Positions 1,493 to 33,716 of a DNA stretch of 39,057 nucleotides are shown here, in pieces. The translations under genes and the position numbers were made by a program. The notes below the pieces were generated by a model. It was not told the DNA's origin. It saw only the letters and a list, made by a program, of their open reading frames with translations, and did no database searches. The stretch's first letter is position 1, and every line of letters begins with the position of its first letter. The stretch is taken from the IMG/VR virus record IMGVR_UViG_3300026975_000004, positions 1-39,057 of that record; one strand, written 5' to 3'. This DNA is from a virus. Its lineage: Duplodnaviria; Caudoviricetes.

Positions 1493-3154
1493 ATGAGCGA
1501 TCAGGAGCAGAGCGACGGGATGGAGCAGAACGTGGTCAATCTGGAGGCCATCCGGGCCCAAGTGGAAGATCGGGTCCAGGCGGAGGAGGAAAAGCGCGGC
1601 GGCGGCTCGGACAACGGCGGGCCGGTGGACAGCGGCTTTATCCGCGGCTGCCTGGAGGCCAACGAGCTGGGGGACGGCATCCTGTTCGGCAAGCTGCATC
1701 GGGGCAAGTTCCTGTTCAACAAATTTATGGACGACTGGCTGATCTGGTCCGGCCATCACTGGGACGTCGACGTGATGGAGCGGGCACCGGCCGCCGTGGA
1801 GGAAGTGGTGAAGCACTACCAGGGCGAGGCCGTTGCCATCAGCAAGCAGGTCCGGGAGCTGGACGAGGACAAGCAAAAGGACAAGGTGCGGCACCTCAAA
1901 TACATCCGCGAAAAGCTCAACCAGCGGGTGACGGCGCTGCGCTCCACCCGGCGGCGAAAAAACTGCCTGTCCATGGCCCACACCTGCAAGGATCCGCTGG
2001 CCATCCGGGGGGATGAGATCGATCGCAAGCCCCTGCTGCTGGCCTGCGCCAACGGGGTGGTGGATCTGGAAACCGGGGAGATGGCGCCCGGGCGTCCGGA
2101 GGATTACCTGCTCAAGGCCTCGCCGGTGGAATGGCAGGGCATCGATGCTCCGTGTCCGGTGTTCAAGCAGGCCCTGCAAGACATTTTGTCGGAAAACAAG
2201 CCCCTTTACCGGTTCCTGCAGCGGGCCTTCGGCTACGCCATGCTGGGCGAAGTGCGCCAGAGTGTCATCATGGTGCTGGCCGGCCAGGGCCGCAACGGCA
2301 AAAGCCTGATCGTCAACACGATTTCGGACGTCATGGGGCCGCTGGCGGGCGCGATCCGGGCGGAGATGCTCCTGGACCAGGGCCGGGTGGCCAACTCGGC
2401 CGGTCCCACGCCGGACATCATGGCCCTGCGGGGGCTGCGCATGGCGTTTGCCAGCGAGAGCGACCAGGGCAGCCGGTTCTCCCCCAGCCGGGTGAAGTGG
2501 CTCACGGGCAACGACCGGCTCACCGGCCGCAACCCCCACGACAAGCACGAGACCCAGTTCAGCCCCACCCACACGCTTTTTCTGCTGACCAACAACGAGC
2601 CCCAGGCGCCGCCGGACGATTTTGCATTCTGGGAGCGGGTGTTCCTGGTGCCTTTCGACGTCTCGTTCGTGGACCGGGAGCCCCGGGCCGACAACGAGCG
2701 CCGCTCGGATCCGCAGCTGCCGGCCAAGCTGCGGGCGGAGTGGCCCGGCATTCTGGCCTGGCTGGTGCGCGGCTGCATTCACTACCAGCGCGAGGGCCTG
2801 GCGCCGCCGCTGATCGTGCGCGAGGCCACCAAGGAGTACCGCAGCGACCTGGACAGCGTCAGCGATTTTATCGAGGTCTGCCTGGAGGAGGAGGACACCG
2901 CCGAGACCGGCGCCACCCTGCTCTACTGGGTGTTTGCCCAGTGGTGGGACGACAACGTGGGCACCAAGGTGATGAGCCAGAAGCGCTTCGGCACGCTCTT
3001 CGGCAAGCGCTTTCCAAAAAAGAAAAAGCCGGCGGTCTGCTACATCGGCGTGAAGCTGACCGCCCAGGGGTTCTCTTATTTGGACCAGGCCAACGACATC
3101 CGGGAGCGCAAGGGCAAGAAACTTTTGACAGTTGACGATCAGCTAAACCTTTAG
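1493..3154 (+). CDS. P4-family/D5-like SF3 helicase (phage/plasmid primase P4 family C-terminal domain)
   Basis: D5_N-like region (NGVVDLETG), Walker A GQGRNGKS, ASE Walker B region, VKWLTGND, TNNEP motif C. Confidence 0.92.
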   Translation: MSDQEQSDGMEQNVVNLEAIRAQVEDRVQAEEEKRGGGSDNGGPVDSGFIRGCLEANELGDGILFGKLHRGKFLFNKFMDDWLIWSGHHWDVDVMERAPAAVEEVVKHYQGEAVAISKQVRELDEDKQKDKVRHLKYIREKLNQRVTALRSTRRRKNCLSMAHTCKDPLAIRGDEIDRKPLLLACANGVVDLETGEMAPGRPEDYLLKASPVEWQGIDAPCPVFKQALQDILSENKPLYRFLQRAFGYAMLGEVRQSVIMVLAGQGRNGKSLIVNTISDVMGPLAGAIRAEMLLDQGRVANSAGPTPDIMALRGLRMAFASESDQGSRFSPSRVKWLTGNDRLTGRNPHDKHETQFSPTHTLFLLTNNEPQAPPDDFAFWERVFLVPFDVSFVDREPRADNERRSDPQLPAKLRAEWPGILAWLVRGCIHYQREGLAPPLIVREATKEYRSDLDSVSDFIEVCLEEEDTAETGATLLYWVFAQWWDDNVGTKVMSQKRFGTLFGKRFPKKKKPAVCYIGVKLTAQGFSYLDQANDIRERKGKKLLTVDDQLNL

Positions 3155-3382
3155 CAAGGGATCGTCAACCGCTTTTTTCGGAAGGATTTCGGCATGATGG
3201 ATAGGTGCCTTAAACGATTAAACGATAAGTGGGCTAATTACAGAATGTTTTCTCTTAATTTTTACTTTTCTCTTTTTCTCACACTTATCGTTTAATGGTC
3301 AAATCTATCCAAAATAAAGAAAGAAAACAGCCCTTTAGGGCTTTAAACAGACGAACTTCAATCGTCAAGTGATCGTTTAAAG
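3131..3382. repeat. Putative replication origin: inverted ACGAT-core repeats around an AT-rich core
   Basis: GTTGACGATC/GATCGTCAAC (3131-3140/3160-3169); 15-bp inverted repeat ATTAAACGATAAGTG (3217-3231/3282-3296); further ATCGTCAA (3361) and GATCGTTTAA (3371). Confidence 0.65.
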
Positions 3383-3390
3383 GTCAAAAA

Positions 3391-4890
3391 ATGGCGCAAA
3401 ATGTCATCGATTTATTGAAATCGACCGGGATCGAGCCGCGGCCGGCGGCGCGGGGGGCCAAGGGGGTGGAGTATTGGAGCCCGTGCCCGGGGTGCGGCGG
3501 GGACGACAGGTTCCACGTCTGGCCGGATCAGAACGAGGGGGCCGGGTCCTGGTGGTGCCGGGGGTGCAACCTGGGCGGGGACAACATTGAGTTTTGCCGG
3601 CGGTTCATGGGCATGGATTTCCGGGCGGCGTGCGAGCATGTGGGCCGGGGCGTGCCGGAGTACGAGCGGCGGCAGTTTTACGACCGGCCGCAGCGGCAGG
3701 CATCCCAAAAGTCCTGGCAGCCGGATGCGGCCGGGGCCCCGGACGGGGTGGACGTGGAACGGTGGCGGAACAAGGCTGCCGAGCTGGTGGTCAAGGCCCA
3801 TGCGGCCCTGCTGGAAAATGAAAAGGCTTTGGCCTATCTGGCGGGGCGGGGCATCGACCGGGCGGCGGTGGAGCGGTTTCAGCTGGGCTGGCTGGCGGGC
3901 GAGGGCAAAAACACCTGTCTTTTCCGGCCCCGCGAGTCCTGGGGGCTACCCACGATCAAAAAAGCCAACGGCCGTAAGAAAATGCTGTGGATTCCAAGGG
4001 GGCTGGTCATCCCCTGCCATGGTGCAGACGGGGACGTGGTGCGGCTGCGGATCCGGCGGCCCAAGGCCGATTTGCAGCCGGATGCCGGCGGCAAGCTGCC
4101 GGCCAAGTATTTCGTGGTGCCCGGATCCACCATGGCCCGCATGCTGATCAACCCGGATGCCAAGGCGTTCGTAGTGGTGGAAGCGGAGCTGGACGCCCTG
4201 GCCGTGGACGTGGCCGCCGGGGATCTCGTGGGCGCCCTGGCCGTGGGCTCCTCCAGCACCAAACCGGACGCGGCGGTGGCCGGGCCGCTGCAGAAGGCCC
4301 TGGCCATCCTGGTGGCGCTGGATTTCGATCATGCCGGCGCCGGGGCCTGGCCCTGGTGGCAGGGGCAGTTCGAGCGGGCGCGGCGGTGGCCGGTACCGGC
4401 GGGCAAGGATCCGGGGGATGCGGTCAAGGAAAGGGTGGATCTGCGGGCCTGGATCATAGCCGGGCTGCCGCCGGCCTTGACCATTGGCCCATCTCGCTTT
4501 GGATTGGATGAAACAAAGGGGGGCGCGGAAAATGATGTACCGAGCAGTGGGCGACGGGAATGCGACGATGTTCCGGATACCGATGAGCAGATCCAGAAAT
4601 CGTCTCCGGAACAGGAAATGGATGCGGATCCGGCGGGCGGCGTGGACGGCCTGGCGCCATCTGTCGGTGAGCTGGCCGCCCTGCTGAAGCAATACCCGGT
4701 GCGGATCATCAACCGGCCGGAGCGCACGGCCATCGAGGAGCGGTCGATTATGCAGCGGCGGTTTGCGGCGGAGAGTAAACGGATCAGCCAGTTGGTGTAC
4801 TTCGACCGGGCCTGCTGGGATCACATCGCGGCGCACCCGGCGGAGATCGTTGACGGGTCTAATTTTTTCGATTCGGTAAGTAGCAATTAA
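3391..4890 (+). CDS. DNA primase with P4-alpha-type zinc-binding domain and TOPRIM domain
   Basis: CPGCGGDDRF...WWCRGC zinc ribbon; VVVEAELDA and LDFDHAG TOPRIM acidic motifs; GKDPGD. Confidence 0.85.
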   Translation: MAQNVIDLLKSTGIEPRPAARGAKGVEYWSPCPGCGGDDRFHVWPDQNEGAGSWWCRGCNLGGDNIEFCRRFMGMDFRAACEHVGRGVPEYERRQFYDRPQRQASQKSWQPDAAGAPDGVDVERWRNKAAELVVKAHAALLENEKALAYLAGRGIDRAAVERFQLGWLAGEGKNTCLFRPRESWGLPTIKKANGRKKMLWIPRGLVIPCHGADGDVVRLRIRRPKADLQPDAGGKLPAKYFVVPGSTMARMLINPDAKAFVVVEAELDALAVDVAAGDLVGALAVGSSSTKPDAAVAGPLQKALAILVALDFDHAGAGAWPWWQGQFERARRWPVPAGKDPGDAVKERVDLRAWIIAGLPPALTIGPSRFGLDETKGGAENDVPSSGRRECDDVPDTDEQIQKSSPEQEMDADPAGGVDGLAPSVGELAALLKQYPVRIINRPERTAIEERSIMQRRFAAESKRISQLVYFDRACWDHIAAHPAEIVDGSNFFDSVSSN

Positions 4891-8184: not shown

Positions 8185-8538
8185 GTGGCTGCAGAGTTAA
8201 GTGACAGAGAAAAAGTAGCATACGATTTAAGGAAAAAAGGGAAAACGTTTAAACAGATTGGACGTGTTTTAAACTGTACTAAAGGCGGGGCTTGGCTATT
8301 ACATCGAAATGCTGAAAAAAAATTAAACAGTGAGTCTTCACCCTATGATGGATTAAGTACACGGGCTACGAATTGTCTAATTAATTTTGGTTTAACAGAC
8401 AAAGAGTCGGTGGCTCGTGCCATTAAAAGCGGAGCTTTATATCCAGGTGTAATTATAAACAGATATCGGAGTTACGGATTAAAAACACATATAGAGATTT
8501 GTAAATGGCTCGGTTTGCCAGATCCAACAAAGAAGTAA
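8185..8538 (+). CDS. HTH (sigma region 4-like) plus RNAP alpha-CTD-like HhH protein
   Basis: LRKKGKTFKQIGRVLNCT HTH; GLSTRATNCLINFGL resembles alpha-CTD LSVRS.NCL; AT-rich; GGAGG RBS. Confidence 0.55.
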   Translation: MAAELSDREKVAYDLRKKGKTFKQIGRVLNCTKGGAWLLHRNAEKKLNSESSPYDGLSTRATNCLINFGLTDKESVARAIKSGALYPGVIINRYRSYGLKTHIEICKWLGLPDPTKK

Positions 8539-8548
8539 AAAGGAATGT

Positions 8549-8776
8549 TTGATGGAATGGACAAAGGAGATACCTACGCAGCCGGGGTATTACTGGTTGC
8601 AATACTACGATGATGGTCTGGGTGGGTATGAGCTTACTTTTGTTGCTCTTTATATTTTAAAAAAAGACGGAACCGCTGTCTATTTTATGCTCGGTTCTGA
8701 TGAAGAATGCGTGGCAGAGGAAGACGCTGTCGATGGTAAGTGGTTTGGTCCAATTGAGCCACCGGGTGAGAGTTAA
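8549..8776 (+). CDS. Hypothetical phage protein
   Basis: WTKEIPTQPGYYW...WFGPIEPP motif of small phage proteins; stop overlaps terL start. Confidence 0.65.
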   Translation: MMEWTKEIPTQPGYYWLQYYDDGLGGYELTFVALYILKKDGTAVYFMLGSDEECVAEEDAVDGKWFGPIEPPGES

Positions 8777-10763
8777 TGTACTTCTCCGCCGACACTATAT
8801 CCATCCCCGCCCGCTGGCGGCCTGTCGATTACGATATCGATGGCGAAATCACGCTGCGGCTGTATGCCGGCGAGAAAAAGCGGTTTCGCAAGCGGCCGCC
8901 CATCAAGGTCAGCGCCTGGGCCGAGCGGCACCGGGTGGTGGTCAAGAGCCGCACGCCCGGGCGCTGGCGCAATTCCACGGCGGCCTATCTGGCCGGCATC
9001 ATGGATGCAGCCGGTGAAAAGTGCGTGGAAACGGTGGGGATCTGCGCAGGGCCCCAGAGCGGCAAGACCGAGGCGGTCAATACTTTTATCGGCTACGCCA
9101 TCGACCGGGCGGCGGGTGATGTACTGATCGTCTACCCCAACGAAAACGACGCCAAGGAAAACAGCACCGACCGCATCCAACCGATGATCACCTCCAGCCG
9201 GCGGCTCAACAGCTACACCACCGGCTACGCCGACGACCTGGCCGGCACCCGGATCAAACTGGAGCACATGGTCATCTACCTAGGTTGGGCCACATCGGCC
9301 AGCCGCCTGGCCAACCGCCCCTGCCGCTACGTGGTGTTCGACGAAACGGACAAGTACCCGGAGACCACCAACAAGAAAGAGGCCGACCCCATCAGCCTGG
9401 GCAAGGCGCGTGCCATCACCTATCGCGGCCTGCGCAAGTATTTCCTGATTTCCACCCCCACCACCGAGGGGAATTACATCTGGCAGTACATCAGCAACGA
9501 GGCCAGCGCGGTTTTCGACTTCTGGGTGAAGTGCCCCGAGTGCGGCGGCTGGCAGAAGATGGCCTTTTCCGAAAAGGATTCCAGCGGCGCCACGGTCTAC
9601 CGCATCAAGGTGCCGGAGGGCGAGCGCGACGCTAACAAGATCCTGGAGCAGGACCTGGCCTGGTACGAGTGCGCCAAGTGCGGCGCCCATTGGGACGACG
9701 CCACCCGGGACCGGGCCGTGCGCGACGGCCAGTGGCGCGATCGCAAATACCAGCGCGAGCTATTCGCCTACCTGGCGGCCTTCAAGCCGAAATCCATCGG
9801 CTTTCACATTCCGGCCTGGATATCGCCGTTTGTTGGTCTGAGCGAGATCATGTCCGATTGGTTCAAGGCCCAGAACGACAAAACCAAACTGAAGGACTTC
9901 CAGAACAAACGGGCCGCCGAGCCGTGGCGGGCTTATGAGGTGGTCCGCAAGGGGGATGCGATTCTGAAGCTGCGGGGGATGCGATTCTGAAGCTGCGGGA
10001 TGATCGGCCGCGTACTCGAGTACCTGGCGGTGGAGAGGTTGCCTGCCTGACTGCCGGAGTGGATACCCAGGACGCGGGTTTTTGGTATTCGATCAGGGCA
10101 TGGGGTTGGGGTGGTGTCGAGCTGCTGAAGCCAAGCTGGTGCATCCGGGCCGGATACTGTCTGACGTTCGAAGAGCTGGCGCGGATTCTCTGGAGCGATC
10201 AGTACACGGATGCTGCTGGCCATGAATATGTTGTCCGCCTGACAGTGCAGGACCGCCTGGGCCATCGCACCCGGGAGGTGGACACGTTTTGCCTCAAGCA
10301 TCGCGGGAAGATTCTCCCGAGCCAGGGCAAGGATGTCATGGCCCAGCCGGTCACCTGGTCGACCATCGAATATTACGCCGGTACATCCAAGGCCATCCCG
10401 ACCGGTTTGAAGGCGGTGAACGTCAACACGAAATATTTCAAGGATGAACTCTCGCGCCTGCTGCTGATCGATGCCGGCGACCCGTCGGCGTTTCTCTTCT
10501 ATAATGATTTCCCGGAGGCCTACGCCGATCAGTACACGGTGGAATACCCCAATGAAAAGGGTTTGTGGGAATGCCCGAAAAACAAGGCCAACCACTTGTG
10601 GGACTGCGACGTTTTAAACCTGGTAGCGCATGAGCTTATGGGGGTTTACAAATGGCCGAAGCCGGAAACCCAACCCCAGGACGCACCGCCGCCCGAGGAT
10701 AAAGGCGGCGGGTGGATCAAGGCCGGCGGGTTGTCTGCCGGCGGTTGGATCAATAGGCGTTAA
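8776..10763 (+). pseudogene. Terminase large subunit (lambda GpA family), frameshifted by a 23-bp tandem duplication
   Basis: ATPase part with GPQSGKTE, VVFDETDKYP and ISTPT; nuclease part with LTAGVDTQD and NHLWDC; removing one repeat copy gives a single 654-aa frame. Confidence 0.93.
9951..9999 (+). repeat. Perfect tandem duplication of GGGGGATGCGATTCTGAAGCTGC (23 bp x2, plus GGG)
   Basis: Copies at 9951-9973 and 9974-9996. Confidence 0.97.
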
Positions 10764-22193: not shown

Positions 22194-22532
22194 ATGATTG
22201 CCATTTTCTCCGCCAGCTACAACGTGGCGCTCACTGAAAACAGTGACACCCGGTTGCCCCACGCCGAGGCCCGGATCATCCGCGCGGCCACGTTGGACAG
22301 CGACCCCGGGGTGGTGATGATTCACCGGGGCACGTTTCACGGGGACCGCACGTTCAAGATCCGGGGCAGCGTTACCCGGGACCAGGAGGCGGATCTCAGG
22401 GCCATGCACGAGGCCGGGGCCGTGGCCTACTGCGCCATCCCGGAGGGCACCTTCCAGGGGTTTATCCATAAAATGGAGGTTCGGTACGGCGTGCTGGACC
22501 TGGAGTTTTACGTCAAGGAAAAGAGCGAATAA
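22194..22532 (+). CDS. Tail tip protein (distal-tail-like)
   Basis: Immediately after tape measure; RAATLD...GDRTF pattern. Confidence 0.55.
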   Translation: MIAIFSASYNVALTENSDTRLPHAEARIIRAATLDSDPGVVMIHRGTFHGDRTFKIRGSVTRDQEADLRAMHEAGAVAYCAIPEGTFQGFIHKMEVRYGVLDLEFYVKEKSE

Positions 22533-22544
22533 CGGAGGCGGGCC

Positions 22545-22982
22545 ATGGCCGTTACCAAGACATTCTCAAACCATTTTTTCTACCAGCTGGCCAACGGCAA
22601 CATCGATTTTTCTTCCGACAGCATCAAGATAATTCTGATGAATACGACGTTTGCCTTCGACAAGGATGCGGACGCCACATTGTCCGATGTCACCAGCGAC
22701 CAGCTTTCCACGGGCAACGGCTACACCCAGAACGCCAAGGCCCTGGCCGGCGTGTCCATCACCGAGGATGATACCAACGACCGCTGCCGGATTTCCTGGA
22801 GCGACCCGGTCTGGACGGCTTCGGGCGGCAGCATCGGGGCCAGTGGCGCGGCAATTATCTATGATGATACCACCGCCGACGACACGGTGATTGCCTGCAT
22901 TGATTTCGGCGAGGATCTTACGGCGGCAGACGGCGAAGACTTCACCCTGACCAGCATCGCAATCAATTTGAGACAGCCCTGA
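22545..22982 (+). CDS. Virion structural protein
   Basis: GNIDFSSDSIKIIL...GNGYTQ...WTASGGSIG...IIYDDT...IDFG, a common phage tail-region pattern; GGAGG RBS. Confidence 0.7.
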   Translation: MAVTKTFSNHFFYQLANGNIDFSSDSIKIILMNTTFAFDKDADATLSDVTSDQLSTGNGYTQNAKALAGVSITEDDTNDRCRISWSDPVWTASGGSIGASGAAIIYDDTTADDTVIACIDFGEDLTAADGEDFTLTSIAINLRQP

Positions 22983-23031
22983 TATGTATGTTGGCGAACT
23001 CCATATGCGGGCCACCCTCGAAGGGGGCTCC

Positions 23032-24192
23032 ATGTCCGTGCTGCAGGGCACGTCCGGAACGGCTTCGGAGTGTACGGGCTCCAGCCAGATTTCGTCGTCC
23101 TACCCGCCCAGCGAGGCATGGGACGGAGTTATCGACGGTACGGACGGCACCAATAACGCCTGGGTGTCGAACAACAGCAACCCCCCGGATTCGGACGGAT
23201 CCCTTTACATTCAGTGGGATTTCTCCGCTGCTAAATTGCTTACGGGATTTCGTTTCCAGGCCCGCGAGGCCACGGGATACGACCAGTGGCCGGACGACGT
23301 CAAGGTGTTGGGCAAGACCAGTGCCCAGGCATGGGGCGAAGCCACAACCCTATATGACGGCGCCATTTCCGGCGCTTCGTCCATGGTGCCGGGCGACTGG
23401 TGCGGCTGGCACAGCTTTACCACCACGGGCGCCTTTGACAGCTACCGCATCGAGATCCATTCGGCCTATATCTATGCGGGCGCATTCGACCGCGTGTCCA
23501 TACAGGAGTTTGAGTTCCAGTATTACGATCCCGGCCCGGAAAACCAGGAGGTGATTGTCGATGATCTGCTGGCGGTGCTGGATATCGAGGCCGGCCGTCC
23601 GGCCGTGCCTGTCATGCTGTTGGCCGAACTGGATAGCGGCGGCGCGTCGGTGACCCATATCGATCGCACGCGCCATTTTTTCCGGGTGACCGTCACCGGC
23701 TGGCAGGACGGCGAAACCGACCTGGAAGTGCCGGCGGAAAGCATCCAAGCCAGAACGCGCTCCGGAGACCCGACCTATCTCAACGTGGTTATCCCCGGCA
23801 TGGCGTATGCTGGAGATATTGCCGACCGGGCCAACGGCCAGATCGTGGTGGATCTGGTCTACATGGACACCGATGGCGAGGTGGCCCAGGCCGAGGAAAT
23901 TGTGCGGGTGGACATCGAGGACATCCAGACCCACGAGGGCGGCCGCTCGGCATCCATTATCCTGGAGGGACGGCGCACCTATTCCCACACGCCCAAGACG
24001 GTCAACCTTTCCGGCAGCATTTACCGGCGGCAGGCCTACGGGCGGCTTTCCTATCGGTTCGTCGAGCCGGACCCATATCTCCGGCCGGGCGACACGGTGG
24101 TGACGGATTACGGCGACACCTTTACCGTGGACGCCATCACCTACACCCTGACCCCCACCCAGTGGTCCATGGAACTGTCGGAGGCGGCTTGA
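23032..24192 (+). CDS. Tail protein with N-terminal discoidin (F5/8C)-like domain
   Basis: AWDG...AWVS...YIQWDF...YRIEI...IQEFEF discoidin-like pattern; C-terminal DPYLRPGDTV; start could be 22984 or 23032. Confidence 0.6.
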   Translation: MSVLQGTSGTASECTGSSQISSSYPPSEAWDGVIDGTDGTNNAWVSNNSNPPDSDGSLYIQWDFSAAKLLTGFRFQAREATGYDQWPDDVKVLGKTSAQAWGEATTLYDGAISGASSMVPGDWCGWHSFTTTGAFDSYRIEIHSAYIYAGAFDRVSIQEFEFQYYDPGPENQEVIVDDLLAVLDIEAGRPAVPVMLLAELDSGGASVTHIDRTRHFFRVTVTGWQDGETDLEVPAESIQARTRSGDPTYLNVVIPGMAYAGDIADRANGQIVVDLVYMDTDGEVAQAEEIVRVDIEDIQTHEGGRSASIILEGRRTYSHTPKTVNLSGSIYRRQAYGRLSYRFVEPDPYLRPGDTVVTDYGDTFTVDAITYTLTPTQWSMELSEAA

Positions 24193-26066
24193 TGGGTAAG
24201 GGGGTCATCATATCGGGCGGCGAGGCGGGCCGCTATGTCGTGCAGCTGGACTATGACGACGCGCGCAAGGCCCTGGTTCTTTCCCGCCTGAATGCCAAAA
24301 TTGATTTTTACCAGGATCAATTGGCTATTGAAACGGATTCGCACCGCCAGGGCCGCCTGAAACTTTGGATTGCCGCTGCCCAGAAGCGGCGCGATTTCCT
24401 TTCGATGGCGTCTGTTTGCCCGACGGACAGCAACATCACGGCCTGGTGCGCGGACCTTACCGAAGATCTTTCCGGAGACGTGGGCACCATCGAGATCGAG
24501 AGCGAGACCGAGCAGGTGCTGATCCGGCCGGGCTACGAGGGCAATGCCGTTTACAGTGCGCTGCGCGACGGGCAGATGCAGCCCCTGCTGGCCCAGGAGC
24601 CGGCCGCCAGCCTGCTGAACTGGATGTTCCACGACGCCCGCCAGAAGTGGAAGCCCCGCCATCGGGTGGCCACGATCGTTTCCGTGGATCACGATACCGA
24701 CACCTGCTCCCTGACCATCGACGCGGCCGACGGCGCCATGACGGGCGCGGACGTCAACATCATGGCCAGTTTCACCAGCGTGCCCATCGACTACATGAGC
24801 TGCAACTCGGCGCCCTTCGAGGCGGGCGACCGCGTGGTGGTGGAGTTTACCGACAACGACTGGGCCCAGCCGGTGGTGATCGGGTTCGAGAGCAATCCCA
24901 AGGGGTGCGATCATGACTACGTGATCGTTACCGTCAAGGCGCGCCCATGGGATGTGGCGACAAACACGGTCTATACGCCGGTGGACTGGTGCATTGTGTG
25001 GGACGTTGGCATGGGCTGCATGGCCGGAGAAATCGAGGCCTCGGCAACCCACGGGGATTTTCTGACGTTTCCCTGTAAATATTCGGACCTTGCTTATTGG
25101 CTTTCGATTACCGAAACCCGTGCGCTGTCTACGAGTATTACCTGGACCGAATTTGACGACATGGATTTTGCGACGCCCTGGGAAGCAAACCCCGGCGAGG
25201 CGTCCTACCCGCCGGGCGGGGCCGGGGTTATGTGTTCCCCCATGCTTTACGACGAATGGGTTTTGCAGGATTTCTTTTACAAGAAATGGGTCCAGGATAA
25301 ATGGCGCTGGACATCCCAAACGAATGTCTCGGGGAATGTTTGTTCGCAACGCGCGCTTATGGCCGGCGGGCGGTATCGCTATCCGCGGAGCGACGGCAAG
25401 ATTTGTCCGGGGACCGAAGTCGCTCCTATGTTCTGGATGGAAATGAACTCGCCGCTGGGGGACTTCGAAGACTTTGTCTATGATTGCCAGCTTTACAAGT
25501 GGGAGTATTGGGCGATAACGACACCGCCGGATAGCAATCTGAATTGGTATCTGGTTCCCTACCCGCTTTATGCTCATCCCTGGTGGGCGGAAGATCGCCC
25601 GACGCTGATCCCGCTGGCGGCATATAGTGGGAATTCCCACGTACAAATTTATATCCATTTCGACCGGATTTTCAGGCAGGAGACAAACGGCGGCGGCCCG
25701 ACGCCCGGGGACCCATGGACAACGGACGACCGGCAGGCGACGAAGATCCAGATCCATGCGGCGGCGTCCTATCATCCGGACCCGGACAAAACGGGCGCGA
25801 TCAATGTAAGCCCGTTTGCGCTGTCGCGGAATGCGTCGTTTGAAGACGCCCTGCTGGACTTGCTGGAAACCCAGTTGAAAGCCGAGGACGCCACCCACGG
25901 CGAAGACTGGTCCTATTGGGCGCTGGACGAAGATCACAGCCCCGCCTGGCCCGGCCCGGGCACAACATCGTTTTTCGATGCGGCCTGTTCGGAAACCTAT
26001 CAGGCCCCGGTGTTGTATTCGCTTTCGTTTGAAATGGAATTTCGCGAATACCCGGAGCCGGAGTAA
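24192..26066 (+). CDS. Tail tip/baseplate protein with aromatic-rich C-terminal half
   Basis: TGATG coupling; VPIDYMSCN..FEAGDRVVVEF...PVVIGF OB-fold-like segment. Confidence 0.6.
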   Translation: MGKGVIISGGEAGRYVVQLDYDDARKALVLSRLNAKIDFYQDQLAIETDSHRQGRLKLWIAAAQKRRDFLSMASVCPTDSNITAWCADLTEDLSGDVGTIEIESETEQVLIRPGYEGNAVYSALRDGQMQPLLAQEPAASLLNWMFHDARQKWKPRHRVATIVSVDHDTDTCSLTIDAADGAMTGADVNIMASFTSVPIDYMSCNSAPFEAGDRVVVEFTDNDWAQPVVIGFESNPKGCDHDYVIVTVKARPWDVATNTVYTPVDWCIVWDVGMGCMAGEIEASATHGDFLTFPCKYSDLAYWLSITETRALSTSITWTEFDDMDFATPWEANPGEASYPPGGAGVMCSPMLYDEWVLQDFFYKKWVQDKWRWTSQTNVSGNVCSQRALMAGGRYRYPRSDGKICPGTEVAPMFWMEMNSPLGDFEDFVYDCQLYKWEYWAITTPPDSNLNWYLVPYPLYAHPWWAEDRPTLIPLAAYSGNSHVQIYIHFDRIFRQETNGGGPTPGDPWTTDDRQATKIQIHAAASYHPDPDKTGAINVSPFALSRNASFEDALLDLLETQLKAEDATHGEDWSYWALDEDHSPAWPGPGTTSFFDAACSETYQAPVLYSLSFEMEFREYPEPE

Positions 26067-26105: not shown

Positions 26106-26474
26106 ATGAGACGCTTTTTACTTTTACTGCTGGCGGTTTGCCTTCTGGCCGCCCCCGTGGCGGTGTGGGCCGCCCAGAACACCCTGGCCATTTCCAGCGA
26201 CCCCGGGGCGGACAGCTTTACCGAGGGCGCCATCCGCAAGGGGGTGTTCAACGTGAGTTTGTCCGGCACCTGGGCCGGCACGGTGACCGTGCAGCGCAGC
26301 TTCGACCGCTTCAGCGCGGCCAGCGATGCGGCCGCCACCTGGCGGGATGTGGCCACCTACACGGCCAACACCGAGGACATGCTCTACGAGCCCGAGGCCA
26401 ATGTCTACTACCGCATCGGGATGGAAGACGGCGACTACACGTCCGGCACCTGCAACATGCGGCTGGGAAGATAA
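26106..26474 (+). CDS. Signal-peptide protein, small beta-sandwich
   Basis: MRRFLLLLLAVCLLAAPVAVWA signal; FNVSLSGTWAGTVTVQRSFD; GAGG RBS. Confidence 0.75.
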   Translation: MRRFLLLLLAVCLLAAPVAVWAAQNTLAISSDPGADSFTEGAIRKGVFNVSLSGTWAGTVTVQRSFDRFSAASDAAATWRDVATYTANTEDMLYEPEANVYYRIGMEDGDYTSGTCNMRLGR

Positions 26475-26484
26475 GGGGGTGACC

Positions 26485-28476
26485 ATGCGAAGCACGTATA
26501 AATATCTGATTCTGATGGCGGTGCTGGGCCTCGTGTTTATCCTGGGGCCGCTGCTGGCCTATGGTGACGATGTGGTGCCAATGGATTTTAAGCTGCGCAA
26601 GGGCATCGAGGTGACGGACGACGAGGTGAAGATTAAAGACGGTAGGTCTCTTACTGTTGGTGCTACAGGCTCAATTTCTGAAGAAACCAACACCATGACG
26701 TTAGACGATGGCGACGGTTTGCCGATTACGCTGCAAGAGATCCGCAACGCTACCGGTGGAACTGACACGACGGCCATCCACGACAACCAGGCTGGCGAAA
26801 TTAATGCGGTCTCGCAGGAGGGCACGGCCCTTGAAGACGGAGACGCACTGATCGGTGAAGACGCTCAAAACAGTTACGCTAAGATCAAGATTCTGCTGTC
26901 TGAACTATGGACGTACATATCCGGCAAAATCAGCGCAACCTATCCGAACCTGGACACCGACAGCACGGATGATTTTGACGGCGCCTGGTCTAATCTGACC
27001 GGGACCCCAACCACACTTGCCGGATACGGGATTACGGACGCCCAAGCCGACCTCGACGTCCCAAGTCAAGCCGAAGCCGAGGCCGGGACAGCGACAACGG
27101 AAAGGGTTTGGACGGCGCAGCGGATTTCGCAGGCCATTGCCGCGTTGGCCGGTGGTGGTACGGATGATCAGACGGCGGCGGAAGTAACGGCGGTTGATGA
27201 GTTTGACAACTCCAATTCGACCAATGTGCAAGACGTTCTGGACGACTTGGACGCAGCGATCGCGGGCGGCGGGTCTACGCTCGGGGACGTTGCCGTTACC
27301 GCGCCGCTTACAGGGGCAACAAACGATATTTTACCCGGAACAGACGGCACAAAGATCACCATTGCCATGCCAGCGGCTACCAATAGCGCTGACGGATACA
27401 TGACATCAGCACAGGTTACGGCTTTAGAAGCGATTGACACTGTATTAGAACGCAACGCCGCATTCGCCGGGGCGGTTTTGTCATCTGCTCCCGGCAGCCC
27501 GACCAACGGCCAATTGGCTATTGCCGACGGCGACAACTGGCAGCCCGGATCCACCGACCAGGGCACCGACGACTGGCTGTGCATTTACCGGTCCAGTGAT
27601 ACCACATGGGTGGGTGTCTACAACATTACGGACGGCACGTTGATTGCGTCTAATGCGGTACTGACCGGAGATCTGGGTACGGGGGTGCAGACGGCCCTGG
27701 GTATCGAAGCCGGAACATCCGGCGGCTTTGCCATGCACGACGACTTGCCTACCGCAGCAACCCGGGACAGTCTTGGGCTTGATACAGACGATACCCCACA
27801 ATTCGCTGGCATCGAAGTCGGCAACGCCTCCGACACGACCGTCACGCGATCTGCGGCGGGTGTTATCGCCGTCGAGGGCACCGATCTTGTGCGGGCATCC
27901 AGCGATATCAACAATGCTGGAGTTATCCAAGCTAATGCAGTCGATGCGTCCATGATTAATGATTGGTACGCTTACGACGAAATCCCCGTAGCCTGGATGC
28001 AGGACGGCACCAGTGCTCCGGCGGCCCTGGACGATGCCAGCACCCGCAGCCCGTTTGTCTACCGGGATTTTGACGATGAAGCCGACGAAGATTTAAATTT
28101 TGTCTGGTTCGTGCCTGCCGATCTTTCCGGGTCTACTATCCAATACCGAGTCAAATATTTGATTACCAATGCAACTGGCCCAAGCGCTACTGAAGGCGTG
28201 GCTTTTGGCCTTTCCGGTGTTTCTGCCGGTAACAATGACGCCACGAACGGAACCAAGGGAACGGTGGTCGTTGTAACCGATGACACTCTTAATGCCGCAC
28301 AACATGACGTGATGGTAACCGGTTGGAGTGGGGATGTAACGGTAACGAGCCTTGCCGCTGGGGAGGTCGCAGAGATGGCCCTGATCAGAGATGTTTCTGA
28401 CACGGTGGATGACTATGCGCAGGACGTTGGCGTGCTTTCAGTAGAAATCCGATATGTCCAGAACGTAGCGAGGTAA
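26485..28476 (+). CDS. Tail fibre-like protein with N-terminal signal peptide
   Basis: MRSTYKYLILMAVLGLVFILGPLLAYG signal; fibre motifs PTTLAGYGITDA, SQAEAEAGT...TAQRISQAI, PAATNSADGYMTS. Confidence 0.75.
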   Translation: MRSTYKYLILMAVLGLVFILGPLLAYGDDVVPMDFKLRKGIEVTDDEVKIKDGRSLTVGATGSISEETNTMTLDDGDGLPITLQEIRNATGGTDTTAIHDNQAGEINAVSQEGTALEDGDALIGEDAQNSYAKIKILLSELWTYISGKISATYPNLDTDSTDDFDGAWSNLTGTPTTLAGYGITDAQADLDVPSQAEAEAGTATTERVWTAQRISQAIAALAGGGTDDQTAAEVTAVDEFDNSNSTNVQDVLDDLDAAIAGGGSTLGDVAVTAPLTGATNDILPGTDGTKITIAMPAATNSADGYMTSAQVTALEAIDTVLERNAAFAGAVLSSAPGSPTNGQLAIADGDNWQPGSTDQGTDDWLCIYRSSDTTWVGVYNITDGTLIASNAVLTGDLGTGVQTALGIEAGTSGGFAMHDDLPTAATRDSLGLDTDDTPQFAGIEVGNASDTTVTRSAAGVIAVEGTDLVRASSDINNAGVIQANAVDASMINDWYAYDEIPVAWMQDGTSAPAALDDASTRSPFVYRDFDDEADEDLNFVWFVPADLSGSTIQYRVKYLITNATGPSATEGVAFGLSGVSAGNNDATNGTKGTVVVVTDDTLNAAQHDVMVTGWSGDVTVTSLAAGEVAEMALIRDVSDTVDDYAQDVGVLSVEIRYVQNVAR

Positions 28477-28478
28477 CG

Positions 28479-29090
28479 ATGAAAAAACTATTAATCGTTT
28501 TTCTTCTCCTAACATGGCCTTGCATTCTTACTGCCGACCTAAACCCCTATGTGGCTGGGGGCGGGACGCCTACGGCGGAGTCTTGCGCCGGGGGCAGCGA
28601 CGGAACCCTTGGGTCCGCGAATACCTCATATGGCGGCTTCGTTTTAAGCGATTACGACCTGGTTTATTCAGAATTTACAGCCGACTCAGCCGATGATGGC
28701 AGCATAACGTATATCCATGTTCAAATTCGCAATAATGACGGCGGTACATGCGAGGCGGGTATATGGAGTCTGTCGGGCACGACAGCAACGCTACTCAATG
28801 ATACGTCCACAGTGAGCGGTAGCAACGGCAACCCGCAGACGATCAACCTGGCAATACCATCCACCTGTATAGTTGACGGAACAACGTATTTGTTAGGCGT
28901 GTCGTGCGACGATACAGATACGTCATGGTCTGGATTCTGTGGAGCATACGATGCCGCCGCATCGGTCATGCACCATAGCGGCATGGAACCGGGTGGCCTG
29001 GGAAATTTCTCCACATCAGGCGATACAGAGGTTCAGTCCTCCAGACCGCTATCAATCGTGGTTAACAATTCATCGTCGAGTCCATTCTAA
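28479..29090 (+). CDS. Signal-peptide beta-rich protein
   Basis: MKKLLIVFLLLTWPCILTA signal; Ser/Thr/Gly-rich, several Cys. Confidence 0.7.
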   Translation: MKKLLIVFLLLTWPCILTADLNPYVAGGGTPTAESCAGGSDGTLGSANTSYGGFVLSDYDLVYSEFTADSADDGSITYIHVQIRNNDGGTCEAGIWSLSGTTATLLNDTSTVSGSNGNPQTINLAIPSTCIVDGTTYLLGVSCDDTDTSWSGFCGAYDAAASVMHHSGMEPGGLGNFSTSGDTEVQSSRPLSIVVNNSSSSPF

Positions 29091-29959
29091 TGATGAGAAT
29101 AATAGTTTCGATCATAATCCTTTTTTCAATTGCCCGGTCGGCTCCTGCTGAGATTCTTTGGCAGGACGACTTCGAGTATGGGCAGGACTATGCAAATATT
29201 TCTGCGTTGGCTGGCAATTCAACATTCACGACCCGCTGGCCAGACGAACGCCAGGAAAGCACTGGCACAATATCTGTGCAATCCACATACGCTCATGGCG
29301 GTAGCCGTGCCCTCTACATGGAGGGGGTCAGCCAAACCAATGCGTTTATCAGCCACAACATTACCCTGAGAGATGAGTTGTGGGTATCCATGTGGATTCG
29401 CCCAGATTATGGCACTGCGGACGGAAAATTAATCTACACCTATGACAACCTGAGCGGCGCTGGCGGCGGATGGGTGCTAAAATACCAGCAGGATTATCGC
29501 TGGACAGGTGTATGCGCTACGGGGTCTGCCAATCAACAAGATTTCGGTGGCACGGGTTGGAGCCTGCACTATCTCGGTCCTGGCGGGGCGACGAATGAAA
29601 CCGGCCTCGAAAATCTGGCTAATGGCATCGCCACATTTGATCAGTGGACACGTTACGTGCTGCATGTTGATGCGTCGGATGGCACGGTCGAATTATGGGT
29701 TGATACGGGCAGCGGTCTGACCAAGACGGGCGACCGTACTGTCTCTGGAACAGCGTGTGACCCCGGCGGCACGTTACGATTCAAGCTGATTTTGCTCCCC
29801 CAGTCGTCATCAGCCGCCGTTTATATAGACGATTTTATAGCAGGCACGACTGCTGCTGATGTCGGTATAGGGAGTTCTCCGTCAGCAAGCGCCACGATCC
29901 ATCGCGCCACGTCTGGGGCGGCTTTCGAACGGGCCGCCAATGGGGCGGCGTTTGAGTAA
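29090..29959 (+). CDS. Signal-peptide protein, ConA/LamG- or polysaccharide-lyase-like jelly roll
   Basis: MMRIIVSIIILFSIARSAPA signal; WQDDFE, AHGGSRAL, WVSMWIRP, DQWTRY..H, DGTVELWVD, VYIDDF. Confidence 0.65.
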   Translation: MMRIIVSIIILFSIARSAPAEILWQDDFEYGQDYANISALAGNSTFTTRWPDERQESTGTISVQSTYAHGGSRALYMEGVSQTNAFISHNITLRDELWVSMWIRPDYGTADGKLIYTYDNLSGAGGGWVLKYQQDYRWTGVCATGSANQQDFGGTGWSLHYLGPGGATNETGLENLANGIATFDQWTRYVLHVDASDGTVELWVDTGSGLTKTGDRTVSGTACDPGGTLRFKLILLPQSSSAAVYIDDFIAGTTAADVGIGSSPSASATIHRATSGAAFERAANGAAFE

Positions 29960-29985
29960 TTAAAGACGTCTGAAAGGACACGGGG

Positions 29986-30828
29986 ATGATCCCGGATCTG
30001 GACGATAAATTCATTAAATTCCGGCGGCACATGCTGGTCTATGACGGCCTGGCGACCACCTCGGCCGACAACCTGGCCCGGGTGGCGCGCAAGATCCTGA
30101 CCGACCTTGGCACGGCGGCGCCCACCATCGAGCAGGTGGAGATCTATATCGAGTCCCTGCGGGAGTCGGATTATTCGTGGAGCCACATCTGCAACCAGAT
30201 GCTGGCCATCGAGCGCTACATGCGTTTCATCGGCCAGCAGGTCAAGTTCGGTCGACCGCGCAAGCCCCGGCGGGTGGTGAGCAACACCCTTACCGAGGCG
30301 GAAGTGGCCATCCTGATCGACGCGGCCAGGGGCTCCCGCGAGCGGGCGCTGATGGCCATGCTGGCCTATGCCGTGCCCCGCAACCAGGAGCTGTGCGATT
30401 TGCGGGTGCGCCACGTGGATATCGCCAACCACGAGGTTTATATCGAGGACGGCAAGGGGGCTCGGGACCGGATTGCCTACATCCCCGGCGAGTGCGCCCG
30501 GATCCAGGCAGAGTATATCCACGATCACCGGTTGACCGCCGACATGATGCTTTTCAAGCCAACGCGGGGTGGCGAGCCCAAAATGCGGCCGCATGTTGTC
30601 CGGCGCACCGTCGCCCGGATTGCGGCCCGCACCAAAATCGAGAAGAAAATCTACCCGCACATCTTCCGGCACTCATGGGCCACCAACATGCTCAACCGCG
30701 GCGCCAACCCCCGCACGATCCAGGCGCAGCTGGGCCACAGTTTTCTGGAAACCACCATGCTCTACTTGGAGAACCGGCCGCGACACGTCAAGAACGAGTG
30801 CCAGATGTTCGCGCCGGCTTATATGTGA
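29986..30828 (+). CDS. Tyrosine recombinase (XerC/D-like)
   Basis: Complete catalytic set: R (PRNQE), K (GKG), HxxR (HIFRH), H (LGHS), Y (TMLY). Confidence 0.92.
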   Translation: MIPDLDDKFIKFRRHMLVYDGLATTSADNLARVARKILTDLGTAAPTIEQVEIYIESLRESDYSWSHICNQMLAIERYMRFIGQQVKFGRPRKPRRVVSNTLTEAEVAILIDAARGSRERALMAMLAYAVPRNQELCDLRVRHVDIANHEVYIEDGKGARDRIAYIPGECARIQAEYIHDHRLTADMMLFKPTRGGEPKMRPHVVRRTVARIAARTKIEKKIYPHIFRHSWATNMLNRGANPRTIQAQLGHSFLETTMLYLENRPRHVKNECQMFAPAYM

Positions 30829-30927
30829 CACGGGGAGAACTGCCCATGGAAAAGTCACTGCGGAATCACATCAACGCCACGGCGGCCCTCCTGGAAGATC
30901 AGGCCGCGCGGCTAAAGGAGATCGAAA

Positions 30928-31305
30928 ATGAAAAGGATATTTATCGTCGTTGCGCTCTGCTTATTGGTTTGCGTGCTGGCCGGGGTATCCCATGCGGCCA
31001 CCGACAGCGTGAACCTGAGCTGGGGGGCCAGCCCGTCGGATGACGTGGCCGGCTACAATATCTATTACGGCACGGCGCCGGATGCCTTTGGCGCCCCCAT
31101 CGCCGTGGGCAACGTGACCGCCTACGAGCTGGCCATCGAAGATATTCCGGACGGGGCCGACACCACCTACTATTTCGGCGTGTCGGCCGTGGACACCAGC
31201 GGCAACGAGAGCAGCATTACCAGTGTTACCCCGGACGGGGTGGCGACCACCAAGCGGTGGGATTTTTTGGCACCGAGCCCGCCTCCCAGCCTGTCCGCCG
31301 AGTAG
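30928..31305 (+). CDS. Signal-peptide fibronectin type III domain protein
   Basis: MKRIFIVVALCLLVCVLAGVSHA signal; LSW, GYNIYYG, YYFGVSAVDTSGNES FN3 motifs; AAGGAG RBS. Confidence 0.85.
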   Translation: MKRIFIVVALCLLVCVLAGVSHAATDSVNLSWGASPSDDVAGYNIYYGTAPDAFGAPIAVGNVTAYELAIEDIPDGADTTYYFGVSAVDTSGNESSITSVTPDGVATTKRWDFLAPSPPPSLSAE

Positions 31306-31491: not shown

Positions 31492-31962
31492 ATGGGCAGC
31501 ATCGACCCTAAATTTTTGGCCACGATCTGGACGGTCCTGACCTTTCTTTTTTCCGCGGGCATCGCCTACGGCACCATGCGCCTGACCCTGCGGCATCACA
31601 CCCGGGAGATCTCCGAAATCAAAGCCCGCCAGGACAAACACGAATTGACCACCCGCAGCACCCTCGATCACCACGAAGAGGAGACCCGCCAGCAGCTCGA
31701 CCGCCACGCGGACTGGCTGAAGAGTGCCCTGTACCGCGCCAGCGGGGTGACCAACTACCTGCCCCGGGAGGAGTGCGAGCAGTGCCGGGTCAGCTGCCAG
31801 AGCCGCCTGGACGCCCGCCTGGAAACCATGCAGCGCATGATCGAAGAGGGTGAGCGCAAGCGCGAGGCCAGCAAGGACCAGTGGGCCGCCGAATTCAAAA
31901 AGATCGCCCAGTCGATTGGCCGCCTGGAGGGCAAGCTGGGCAACGGGAACGGTGGCGCATGA
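31492..31962 (+). CDS. Single-TM coiled-coil protein of the lysis module
   Basis: N-terminal TM FLATIWTVLTFLFSAGIAYG, coiled coil, ATGA overlap with endolysin. Confidence 0.65.
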   Translation: MGSIDPKFLATIWTVLTFLFSAGIAYGTMRLTLRHHTREISEIKARQDKHELTTRSTLDHHEEETRQQLDRHADWLKSALYRASGVTNYLPREECEQCRVSCQSRLDARLETMQRMIEEGERKREASKDQWAAEFKKIAQSIGRLEGKLGNGNGGA

Positions 31963-32261
31963 CCCTGCGCGAGAAGCAGAGCCGCTTTGTGTGGATGGTC
32001 TCCCGCCTGATCCGCTATGCCTATAACCTGGGCTACGAGCTGACGTTCGGCGATGCCTGGGCGCGGGATGGCCACATGGACGGCAGCCTGCACTACATCC
32101 GCCTGGCCATCGATCTCAACCTGTTTAAAGACGGCACATATTTGACGACCACCGAGGACCACCGGCCCCTGGGGGAGTACTGGGAATCCATCGGCGGATC
32201 GTGGGGCGGCCGTTTCGGCGACGGCAACCACTATTCCCTGGCCCACAACGGCCGGAAATAA
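31959..32261 (+). CDS. Endolysin, peptidase M15 family
   Basis: SLHYIRLAIDL and WGGRFGDGNHYS zinc-peptidase motifs. Confidence 0.9.
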   Translation: MTLREKQSRFVWMVSRLIRYAYNLGYELTFGDAWARDGHMDGSLHYIRLAIDLNLFKDGTYLTTTEDHRPLGEYWESIGGSWGGRFGDGNHYSLAHNGRK

Positions 32262-32283
32262 ATTTCAAAGAACGGAGACAATC

Positions 32284-32700
32284 ATGGAATCCATTTTAAC
32301 CAGCATGGCCATCCAGATACTGGCCCCCATCGCGGTGTCCGTTGCCTCGGCCCTGATCATCTGGCTGTTGGGCGAGGCCGGCCGCTGGGTGCGCACCAAA
32401 ACCCAGAATGAAAAAGTGATCAATGCCATGGACCGCCTGACCTGCACGGCCGCCACCACCGTGGCCGAGCTGGAGCAGGCCCTGGTGCCCGCTCTCAAGG
32501 CCCGGACCGAGGATGGCAAACTGACGGCCCGGGAGCGCGGCCAGCTGCAGCGCCTGGCCCTGGAAAAAATCAAGACGCGCCTGACCCCCGCCATCCAACA
32601 GCAGGCGGGCTTGGCCATTGCCGACCTGGACAGCTTCCTGCAGGCCAAGATCGAGCAGGCCGTTTTGCAAATGAAGGTGACCAATGCCGTCCTCAAATAA
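32284..32700 (+). CDS. Holin-like protein (LL-H-like, one TM)
   Basis: N-terminal TM, TTVAELEQ and KIEQAV..MK pattern, adjacent to endolysin. Confidence 0.6.
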   Translation: MESILTSMAIQILAPIAVSVASALIIWLLGEAGRWVRTKTQNEKVINAMDRLTCTAATTVAELEQALVPALKARTEDGKLTARERGQLQRLALEKIKTRLTPAIQQQAGLAIADLDSFLQAKIEQAVLQMKVTNAVLK

Positions 32701-33250
32701 CCTGGCCCTCTACCTGAGCTACCGCCGCCGGATCCGGCCGGCGGACCTGATCTCCTGGCTGGGTACCGGCGATCTGTCCCGGGCCATTGCCGACCGTGTG
32801 CCCGACGGCAAGCCCGTGCGCTCGCACGTGTCCGGGGTGATTCCGGGCTGGTCGAAATTTCCCCGGGTTATCATCGGCGAGGCCGACCAGGGCGAGGTCA
32901 ACATCCGGGCCCTGTCCGCCAAGCTAGCCGGTTATGACGGCCAGGCCTGGTGGCACCCCCTGCGCCCGGAGCTGGACGCCTACCGCGACGCCATAAGCCT
33001 CTACTACTGGCGGCACATCGGCGTGGACTACGACGAGTGGGGCGTGGTGCGCAACCTGTTCGGCTACGTGGACGCGGACGACAGCAAGCTGTGGTGCAGC
33101 GAGCTGTGCGGCCTGGCCTCCTGCGAGATTCCAATCGGCCTGATGGAACCCGTCAACGCGGCCGTACGCCTGTTAAAGGACGGCAAGGGCCTGCGCCCCT
33201 GCGACTGCGCCATGCTGCCGATCTACGGCGAACCGGAGCGCATCCTGTAA
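32684..33250 (+). CDS. Permuted papain-like NlpC/P60 (YiiX/YebB-like) protein
   Basis: SHV (His) precedes WCSEL (Cys); IGVDYD motif. Confidence 0.7.
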   Translation: MPSSNNLALYLSYRRRIRPADLISWLGTGDLSRAIADRVPDGKPVRSHVSGVIPGWSKFPRVIIGEADQGEVNIRALSAKLAGYDGQAWWHPLRPELDAYRDAISLYYWRHIGVDYDEWGVVRNLFGYVDADDSKLWCSELCGLASCEIPIGLMEPVNAAVRLLKDGKGLRPCDCAMLPIYGEPERIL

Positions 33251-33302: not shown

Positions 33303-33716
33303 TCACATTATCGCCACGTCATGAACCCCGCATTTGTCATCGAGCCAATCGGGGATTTCATACCGTTTACCGCCATCCATGATCATTGTGGTGATGTTTT
33401 CGATGCGGAATGTCCGTTGTTCGTCCCGCTTTTCGCAGAGCCCCTGCAGGTACAGGTATCCCCTGCCATCCTTTAGAACGCGCTTCACCTGCACTGTCCG
33501 GCGCTCTTTCGGCTTGTAATCGTGATGGGGCTTGTAGGTGAACGAAACTTTGCGTGGCCTTCCTTCCCAGAGCGTGGCGGTGTCGTCTTTCCAGTCGTTC
33601 AATGATTTGTATTTTTTAGGTGCGGCAGGTGCTGGCTGTGGCTTGGCTGGCTTGTCGCGGTTGTAGAGCCACCAGAGGAGACCGACGAATAAAAGAATAA
33701 TTAGCAAAGATTTCAT
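33303..33716 (-). CDS. Membrane-anchored WYL-domain protein
   Basis: N-terminal TM; VSFTY...ERRTV...YLQGLCEKRDEQRTFRIENI WYL signature. Confidence 0.8.
   Translation of the reverse strand: MKSLLIILLFVGLLWWLYNRDKPAKPQPAPAAPKKYKSLNDWKDDTATLWEGRPRKVSFTYKPHHDYKPKERRTVQVKRVLKDGRGYLYLQGLCEKRDEQRTFRIENITTMIMDGGKRYEIPDWLDDKCGVHDVAIM

Follow-up and report, generated by a model that had tools for sequence, protein, structure and literature searches.

Signal-peptide-like leaders on a five-gene block between the tail-tip and lysis genes of a lambda-like temperate phage

The assembly of tailed-phage particles is generally taken to finish in the cytoplasm, and Sec leaders normally mark cell-envelope proteins. 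Why, then, would a tailed phage place five genes with signal-peptide-like leaders between its tail-tip and lysis genes? The question is raised by the viral record IMGVR_UViG_3300026975_000004, which we analyzed over its whole length of 39,057 nucleotides (nt; the window) and which comprises almost all of a lambda-like temperate phage. An earlier reading (the original prediction) had noted leaders on the genes at 26106, 26485, 28479, 29090 and 30928, here called g1-g5, and had proposed either an exported tail-fibre system or a cell-surface adhesin. We confirmed the leader-like starts on all five genes and found that such leaders switch together across the gene block, being present on the whole block or on none of it in related phages. 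We propose, at a probability of about 0.6, that g1-g5 encode a Sec-exported tag-and-socket appendage that grips the host, folds in the periplasm and is joined to the virion at lysis; capsid vertices are its likely attachment site and take about half of that probability.

Leaders on the block and in its relatives

Leaders were called with a home-made rule, not SignalP, that combines a net positive n-region, a 9-residue uncharged window with a mean hydropathy of at least 2.3, and small residues at -1/-3. The rule flagged six of the 54 called genes in the window, namely g1-g5, which have all three features in five of five cases, and a minus-strand membrane protein at 33741; none of the head, neck and tail-core genes was flagged. 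Among shuffled versions of the non-flagged proteins, 129 of 9600 passed (1.3%), and a fraction of 5e-5 of permutations placed five flagged genes in a run of six neighbours. Gene positions, N-termini and cleavage sites were as first described, and the window's gene calls bore out the location between tail-tip and lysis genes. The claim of tight packing held for g1-g4, whereas g4 and g5 are split by a recombinase gene. With lengths in amino acids (aa) and a slash at each predicted cleavage site, the genes are as follows.

26106..26474, plus strand: g1, 122 aa; 22-aa leader (VWA/AQNT) and a 100-aa jelly-roll beta-sandwich; likely an oligomeric (pentameric) spike base or socket
26485..28476, plus strand: g2, 663 aa; 27-aa leader (AYG/DDVV), acidic mosaic fibre shaft and, at the C-terminus, a conserved jelly-roll tip (about residues 490-663)
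28479..29090, plus strand: g3, 203 aa; 19-aa leader (LTA/DLNP), N-terminal tag LNPYV, Gly linker and lectin-like beta-sandwich with a predicted C36-C130 disulfide
29090..29959, plus strand: g4, 289 aa; 20-aa leader (APA/EILW), polysaccharide-lyase/ConA-like jelly roll and short repeated C-terminal tail (GAAFE twice)
29986-30828, plus strand: tyrosine recombinase, 280 aa, no leader (PF00589, E 1.9e-26), between g4 and g5
30928..31305, plus strand: g5, 125 aa; 23-aa leader (SHA/ATDS) and FN3 domain (PF00041, E 8e-4, under the curated cut-off; phrog_31, E 1e-6)

We checked whether the true starts might lie downstream of the hydrophobic segments. Shine-Dalgarno-like sites stand at the starts of g1, g2, g3 and g5, the g4 start overlaps the g3 stop, and no gene of the five has a better-scoring in-frame start just downstream of its leader. 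A public protein collection holds identical products with identical starts for the block's proteins, and contigs of a second study are identical to the window DNA over the g1-g4 start regions, with zero differing letters. Start scoring, public proteins and second-study contigs thus reject a start-codon artefact as the origin of the leaders.

The expectation that relatives keep the leaders held for two families. In the g3 family 23 of 29 members carry one and the other six look 5'-truncated, and the g2-tip family has 26 of 30, with two of the remainder looking truncated and the two most distant looking truly signal-less. For g1 the expectation had to be recast, because just 24 of the 120 matches listed (of 133 found; g1 included) bear a leader and the state switches with the block. 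The 96 signal-less g1 relatives are about 93 aa long and start at the position of the predicted mature g1 start, and signal-less g1 adjoins terminase, portal and capsid genes in relatives. A g1-like domain also interrupts the tail protein phrog_376 in four prophages of podophage type (E 3e-16 to 3e-14), which ties the g1 family to virions. These inserts, at about residues 206-293 of a nozzle-type protein in the Lentisphaeria prophages L179, L180, L183 and L184, are possibly sockets fused to the tail.

The g1 family is thereby a natural comparison of genes with and without a leader. The 181 loci with a stand-alone g1 gave 66 clusters at 90% identity, where clusters with fewer than two same-strand neighbours were dropped and neighbours were taken within three genes of g1. 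Leaders were found on 19 of 38 neighbours beside a leader-bearing g1 versus 9 of 268 beside a signal-less one. At least two leader-bearing neighbours occurred in 6 of 8 clusters with a leader on g1 versus 1 of 58 without (Fisher p 2e-6), the eight including the present phage and kin between clusters not being fully independent; clustering at 70% identity gave 4 of 6 versus 1 of 31 (p 0.001). A quick and poorly resolved tree of the family (134 cores, 94 columns) has 11 changes of leader state, at least three of them forced by well-supported branches. Another family, phrog_644, has a signal-less member in this phage (22545) and one with a leader in the relative L017.

Leader-bearing blocks occur in long-tailed phages (the window and L001), in short-tailed phages (L017, vir555 and L200, assigned from their tail genes or internal virion genes, in the case of L200 by eye) and in a Mu-like prophage of genome G211 (by eye), which is one of two hits among 401 genomes of its phylum and has its block far from the tail genes. 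In L164 such a block lies between portal and protease genes (8242-10274) and includes a 276-aa protein with a twin-arginine-like leader. The block adjoins lysis genes here and in L017, L094 and L200, and leader-bearing genes of related blocks match PHROG tail or tail-fibre families (L001, phrog_5302, E 6e-52; L100, phrog_9017, E 3e-10). Because the block is independent of tail type, stands among head genes in L164 and has in g1 a protein that looks more like the base of a five-fold capsid-vertex spike, we consider the "tail fibre" label of the original prediction too narrow and not established.

Virion annotation of leader-bearing proteins exists for two cultured phages. In Cellulophaga phages phi18:3 and phi10:1, 7 of 21 checked virion proteins annotated from tandem mass spectrometry (MS/MS) pass the leader rule, the set being the 21 genes of the examined GenBank stretches, with virion status taken from the record annotation and co-purification possible. 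The passing genes are consecutive (phi18:3 gp085-087; phi10:1 gp091-094) and end a virion module, as g1-g5 do; they differ in their unrelated sequences, in cleavage before Gln and in that the GenBank records leave the leaders unmentioned. These cultured phages make the core claim testable by existing proteomics.

Parts of the block and known counterparts

The structure model of g1 is an all-beta jelly roll (predicted local distance difference test score, pLDDT, 90.8). The fold guesses made earlier hold for g1, for g2 as a mosaic fibre, for g4 as a jelly roll and for g5 as FN3. Against 48,161 representative chains, the best match of the g1 model was XepA (Z 9.6, root-mean-square deviation (rmsd) 4.7, 105 aligned), followed by YomS (Z 9.4, rmsd 4.0, 94 aligned) and a next match at 7.7, values that lie just moderately over background. 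For the g1 sequence, PDB, Pfam and PHROG returned nothing but Asp-box-like noise, Foldseek against PDB gave no match at E<=0.001, and matches in a viral library were all unnamed phage proteins. XepA of PBSX and YomS of SPbeta (PDB 6i56/6i5o) are jelly rolls that form pentamers and whose genes lie between those for tail and lysis; the authors propose a capsid-vertex position for the proteins, and XepA is exported during phage development (PMC6834076). The two share this gene position with g1 and differ in their 8-10% identity to it, in the Gram-positive host and in that the accessible part of PMC6834076 describes no accompanying fibre or lectin block. The XepA/YomS likeness, together with five-repeat peptides in relatives, suggests a pentamer, and on the model g1 is likely the pentameric base or socket of a spike.

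The second counterpart is the head spike of RcGTA, with its pentameric base Rcc01079 and head fibre Rcc01080. According to the accessible part of PMC7296036, a jelly-roll pentamer sits on the capsid vertices, bound by its N-termini, and holds the fibre through repeated hydrophobic residues arranged as a five-point star. There, as here, a small jelly-roll gene adjoins a gene for a sugar-binding protein, and the g1 model has a jelly-roll fold, as the RcGTA base does. Resembling the star peptide, five short hydrophobic repeats were seen by eye at a terminus of the g1 neighbour in L088/L090, L030, L084 and L036 and, in the leader-bearing block of L094, just after the leader in a gene of 90 aa; a period-4 repeat score was unspecific and matched non-neighbours of g1 too. 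The systems differ in that an export step is absent from that part of PMC7296036, whereas here all the parts have leaders and there are four further units and a long fibre; a clear star peptide was not seen in this phage. By analogy, an RcGTA-like socket logic may apply to the g1 family, and the candidates for the chain that plugs into g1 here are the g2 N-terminus and the g4 C-terminal repeat.

In g2, a shaft repeat (residues 161-186) is common to proteins with Mtd_N, PTR, Collar and S74 domains, and a model of the tip (six sequences, pLDDT 71) has a CBM36/TNF-like fold. The protein has no PHROG or Pfam match. It combines fibre-type repeats with a C-terminal binding-type tip, as canonical tail fibres do, and departs from these cytoplasmic, leaderless proteins in its leader, as do its leader-bearing relatives. 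N-termini differ across the g2-tip family, which has no conserved N-terminal domain. Bdellovibrio MAT fibres are likewise mosaic, trimeric and phage-like, with signal peptides and variable sugar-binding tips; they differ in being cellular genes displayed at the surface, with a conserved ~130-aa beta-rich N-terminal domain (PMC10769870, accessible part). Going by that description of MAT fibres, our block, with its phage late genes and variable N-termini, appears to differ from them.

Four loci (the window, vir555, G211 and L200) show this type of g2 tip along with the leader-bearing gene that follows it, and in 4 of 4 the latter has [LM]N[PG]Y[VI] behind its leader. L017, L094 and L001 have other tips and their next leader-bearing protein lacks this start, and G193, which holds a signal-less tip relative, has no neighbour with the tag. 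The tag type of the protein in the g3 position thus travels with the tip type of g2. A further motif, [IV][FM], begins 23 of 71 genes directly behind g1 versus 38 of 1070 other genes, although it was picked after the list had been viewed and the 23 include at least three holin-like or leader sequences.

Within the g3 family, the tag is of variable type and is followed by the Gly linker; one protein shares just the g3 leader and tag (82% over residues 1-34) and has a different body. Of the 23 aligned members (the other six of the 29 were omitted, being partial or fused), 20 have both C36 and C130, three have neither and none has just one of the two, which points to a disulfide between them, whereas a second pair, C91/C143, does not covary (4/4/4/11). 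Mature g1-g5 have 1, 1, 5, 2 and 0 cysteines, so that the suggested role of disulfides survives for g3, perhaps for g4, and fails as a general reason for export. N-glycosylation was rejected as a rationale, because the excess of N-x-S/T sequons is mild (1, 7, 5, 5 and 3 in g1-g5 versus about 1.0, 5.3, 2.9, 1.9 and 0.9 expected) and core proteins exceed expectation too.

For g4, the ESM Atlas structure resembles PF14099/PF21340 (template-modelling score 0.63-0.64), a 27-nt tandem lies at 29898-29951 within the gene, and no match was found among cultured phages. Small leader-bearing genes like g5 occur in L001 and vir555. The recombinase between g4 and g5 is the second of its kind in the window, besides the integrase-like gene at 38307; a shufflon or inversion driven by it was rejected, because there are no convincing inverted target repeats near it and no joints in the contigs of three sequencing runs.

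An exported appendage and its rivals

We propose that the host Sec pathway would export g1-g5, that cleavage of the leaders would expose docking N-termini that line up with the starts of the signal-less forms, and that the parts would fold and pre-assemble in the periplasm. When holin and endolysin open the envelope, the appendage would be clipped onto the finished particle. In this scheme g1 would assemble into a ring that serves as the socket and is probably pentameric and seated on capsid vertices like the base of the RcGTA head spike, g2 would be a trimeric fibre whose tip grips g3 through its short N-terminal tag, and g4 and g5 would be further sugar-binding or spacer units hung via terminal peptides. 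Likely gains would be disulfide- or periplasm-dependent folding of some adhesins, since export would give receptor-binding proteins access to periplasmic folding, and the keeping of sticky lectins away from assembling particles. The leaders, their conservation and joint switching, the folds, the covarying g3 cysteines and the pairing of tag and tip are shown by the data, whereas cleavage, export, oligomeric states, binding partners, head versus tail position and timing are inferred.

Leader conservation, block-wide switching and the covarying g3 cysteines support the exported appendage that the original prediction put forward, if not its identity as a tail fibre. Support also comes from the signal-less twins that begin at the predicted mature start of g1, from the virion-type nature of these signal-less relatives and from the leader-bearing virion proteins annotated in the Cellulophaga phages. 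Because a sugar-binding F5/8 domain is retained among the signal-less tail-tip proteins of this phage, the leader-bearing block may serve as an accessory device for first contact. We give even odds to a broader claim, that many tailed phages of every tail type have a second, extracytoplasmic assembly line in which a tag-and-socket appendage (pentameric vertex socket, fibre and exchangeable lectins) passes through Sec, signal peptidase unmasks docking N-termini and the parts join virions no earlier than lysis, and whose genes toggle repeatedly in evolution, as a block, between cytoplasmic and exported states. A switched export signal on spike and fibre genes, shared by the block and changed repeatedly, implies a maturation step after lysis and means that genes of this kind are classed by annotation pipelines among secreted host cargo.

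Several observations weigh against the exported appendage. The home-made rule was the sole judge of leaders. XepA is reportedly missing from mature particles of PBSX (PMC6834076), Rcc01079 is not in the best 50 structural matches of g1, the RcGTA base gave no sequence match to g1 in PDB searches, and the g2 N-terminus of this phage has no clear five-repeat star. The Cellulophaga leader proteins have no detectable sequence likeness to g1-g5. In the examined stretches of the g2-tip loci G211 and L200 there is no g1, and Defluviicoccus-type genomes (L174, L175, L176 and L181) carry a lone signal-less g1 near flagellar or cell-surface genes, without an evident prophage. Three of the five mature chains (g1, g2 and g5) have 0-1 cysteines, and with few cysteines and a mild sequon excess the benefit of export is less evident for these three. 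Lastly, the G+C content at third codon positions (GC3) is 0.53-0.61 in g2-g4 versus 0.74-0.86 in core genes.

The foremost alternative, which we regard as unlikely, is that g1-g5 are lysogen cargo, that is, secreted lectins and fibres of virion descent that act on or outside the host as an adhesin, a biofilm component or a decoy or receptor mask. Sec leaders are the usual mark of envelope proteins, and the low GC3 of g2-g4, the recombinase within the block and the distance of the G211 block from tail genes are as cargo would have them; MAT fibres are a precedent for phage-like fibres on a cell surface (PMC10769870, accessible part). However, GC3 is core-like in g1 and g5, and no lipobox or membrane segment follows any of the five leaders. 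Signals that could uncouple g1 from the late operon, promoter or terminator, are not above chance; a promoter consensus scan found 6 promoter-like sites versus 5.6 expected by chance, and the gap upstream of g1 to the tail-tip gene is 39 base pairs. The lack of an anchor and of a separate promoter above chance likewise leaves little support for the cell-surface adhesin of the original prediction. Cargo also sits poorly with signal-less twins that are virion-type genes and with the two phages, grown lytically, whose annotated virion proteins include some with leaders.

An improbable reading makes g1-g5 late-exported helpers of lysis or escape, XepA-like, or soluble factors that bind or degrade polysaccharide and never enter the particle. 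The top structural match of g1 is exported in PBSX development and absent from mature particles (PMC6834076, accessible part), the block abuts lysis genes here and in the three relatives named above, and g4 has a lyase-like fold; such helpers would nevertheless leave unexplained the 660-aa fibre, the modular docking tags, the five-repeat peptides and the g1-like domain in a podophage tail protein. The least probable reading of all, in which the leaders are uncleaved membrane anchors or inert for export and the proteins fold at the inner membrane face and assemble as cytoplasmic fibres, can point to the home-made rule and to mature chains that mostly need no disulfide, but against it stand dozens of unrelated leaders that have the classical n-h-c layout and A-x-A-like sites, the mature start in register with signal-less twins and the perfect covariation of one g3 cysteine pair.

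A precedent for export exists outside tailed phages. The filamentous phage coat proteins pVIII and pIII are virion proteins with Sec signal peptides, and they differ from g1-g5 in being membrane-anchored, assembled during extrusion without lysis and parts of non-tailed phages. In the literature searched, with subscription papers mostly and supplements wholly outside it, we found no description of tailed-phage virion parts that are exported by Sec. Taken together, the leader-bearing block is real and widespread, with parts of known kinds and a route that is new if confirmed; what the locus adds is a comparison with and without leader in one family, independence of tail type and the pairing of tag and tip.

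The phage, its source and neighbouring genes

The remaining features of the window are listed from left to right.

Early to head part: primase genes, gpA terminase, lambda-type portal, S49 protease, cement-like protein and major capsid protein
Neck and tail part: head-tail connector, gpZ, 335-aa tube candidate, tape measure and four tail-tip genes
22194..26066, plus strand: the four tail-tip genes, without leader and cytoplasmic (112 aa; 145 aa, phrog_644; 386 aa with F5/8 domain; 624 aa), given as context
31492..33250, plus strand: lysis genes downstream of the g1-g5 block (holin-like protein, M15 peptidase endolysin, holin and a 188-aa protein)
Right part: lysis genes, repressor and, at the window end (38307), the integrase-like gene

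No sheath gene is among the window genes, and the phage is therefore probably long-tailed and non-contractile. A 284-kb contig also encodes the window's proteins, which suggests that it holds an integrated copy. The phage DNA is present in three sequencing runs, two marine and one from aquaculture, and no RNA run is listed among them. Host hints point to Desulfobacterota-like anaerobes (P0007 and G211), and other relatives are labelled archaeal (vir555 and P0280) or Verrucomicrobia (two). Since L162 (vir555) and P0280 both have a leader-bearing block, either their archaeal labels are mistaken or the block occurs across domains.

The terminase large subunit appears as two open reading frames (404 aa and 234 aa; 8776-10763) that match successive parts of phrog_15/PF20454, for which a split gene, readthrough and a sequencing error are candidate causes. 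Two adjoining primase-type genes at 1493-4890 comprise a D5-like helicase part and a zinc-ribbon primase, and a membrane-anchored WYL-domain protein (33303-33716, minus strand) adjoins the repressor region. In the tail-tip proteins at 23032-26066, halves are conserved relative to L001 (65-68% identity) and the other halves are swapped, which places signal-less variable domains next to the leader-bearing block.

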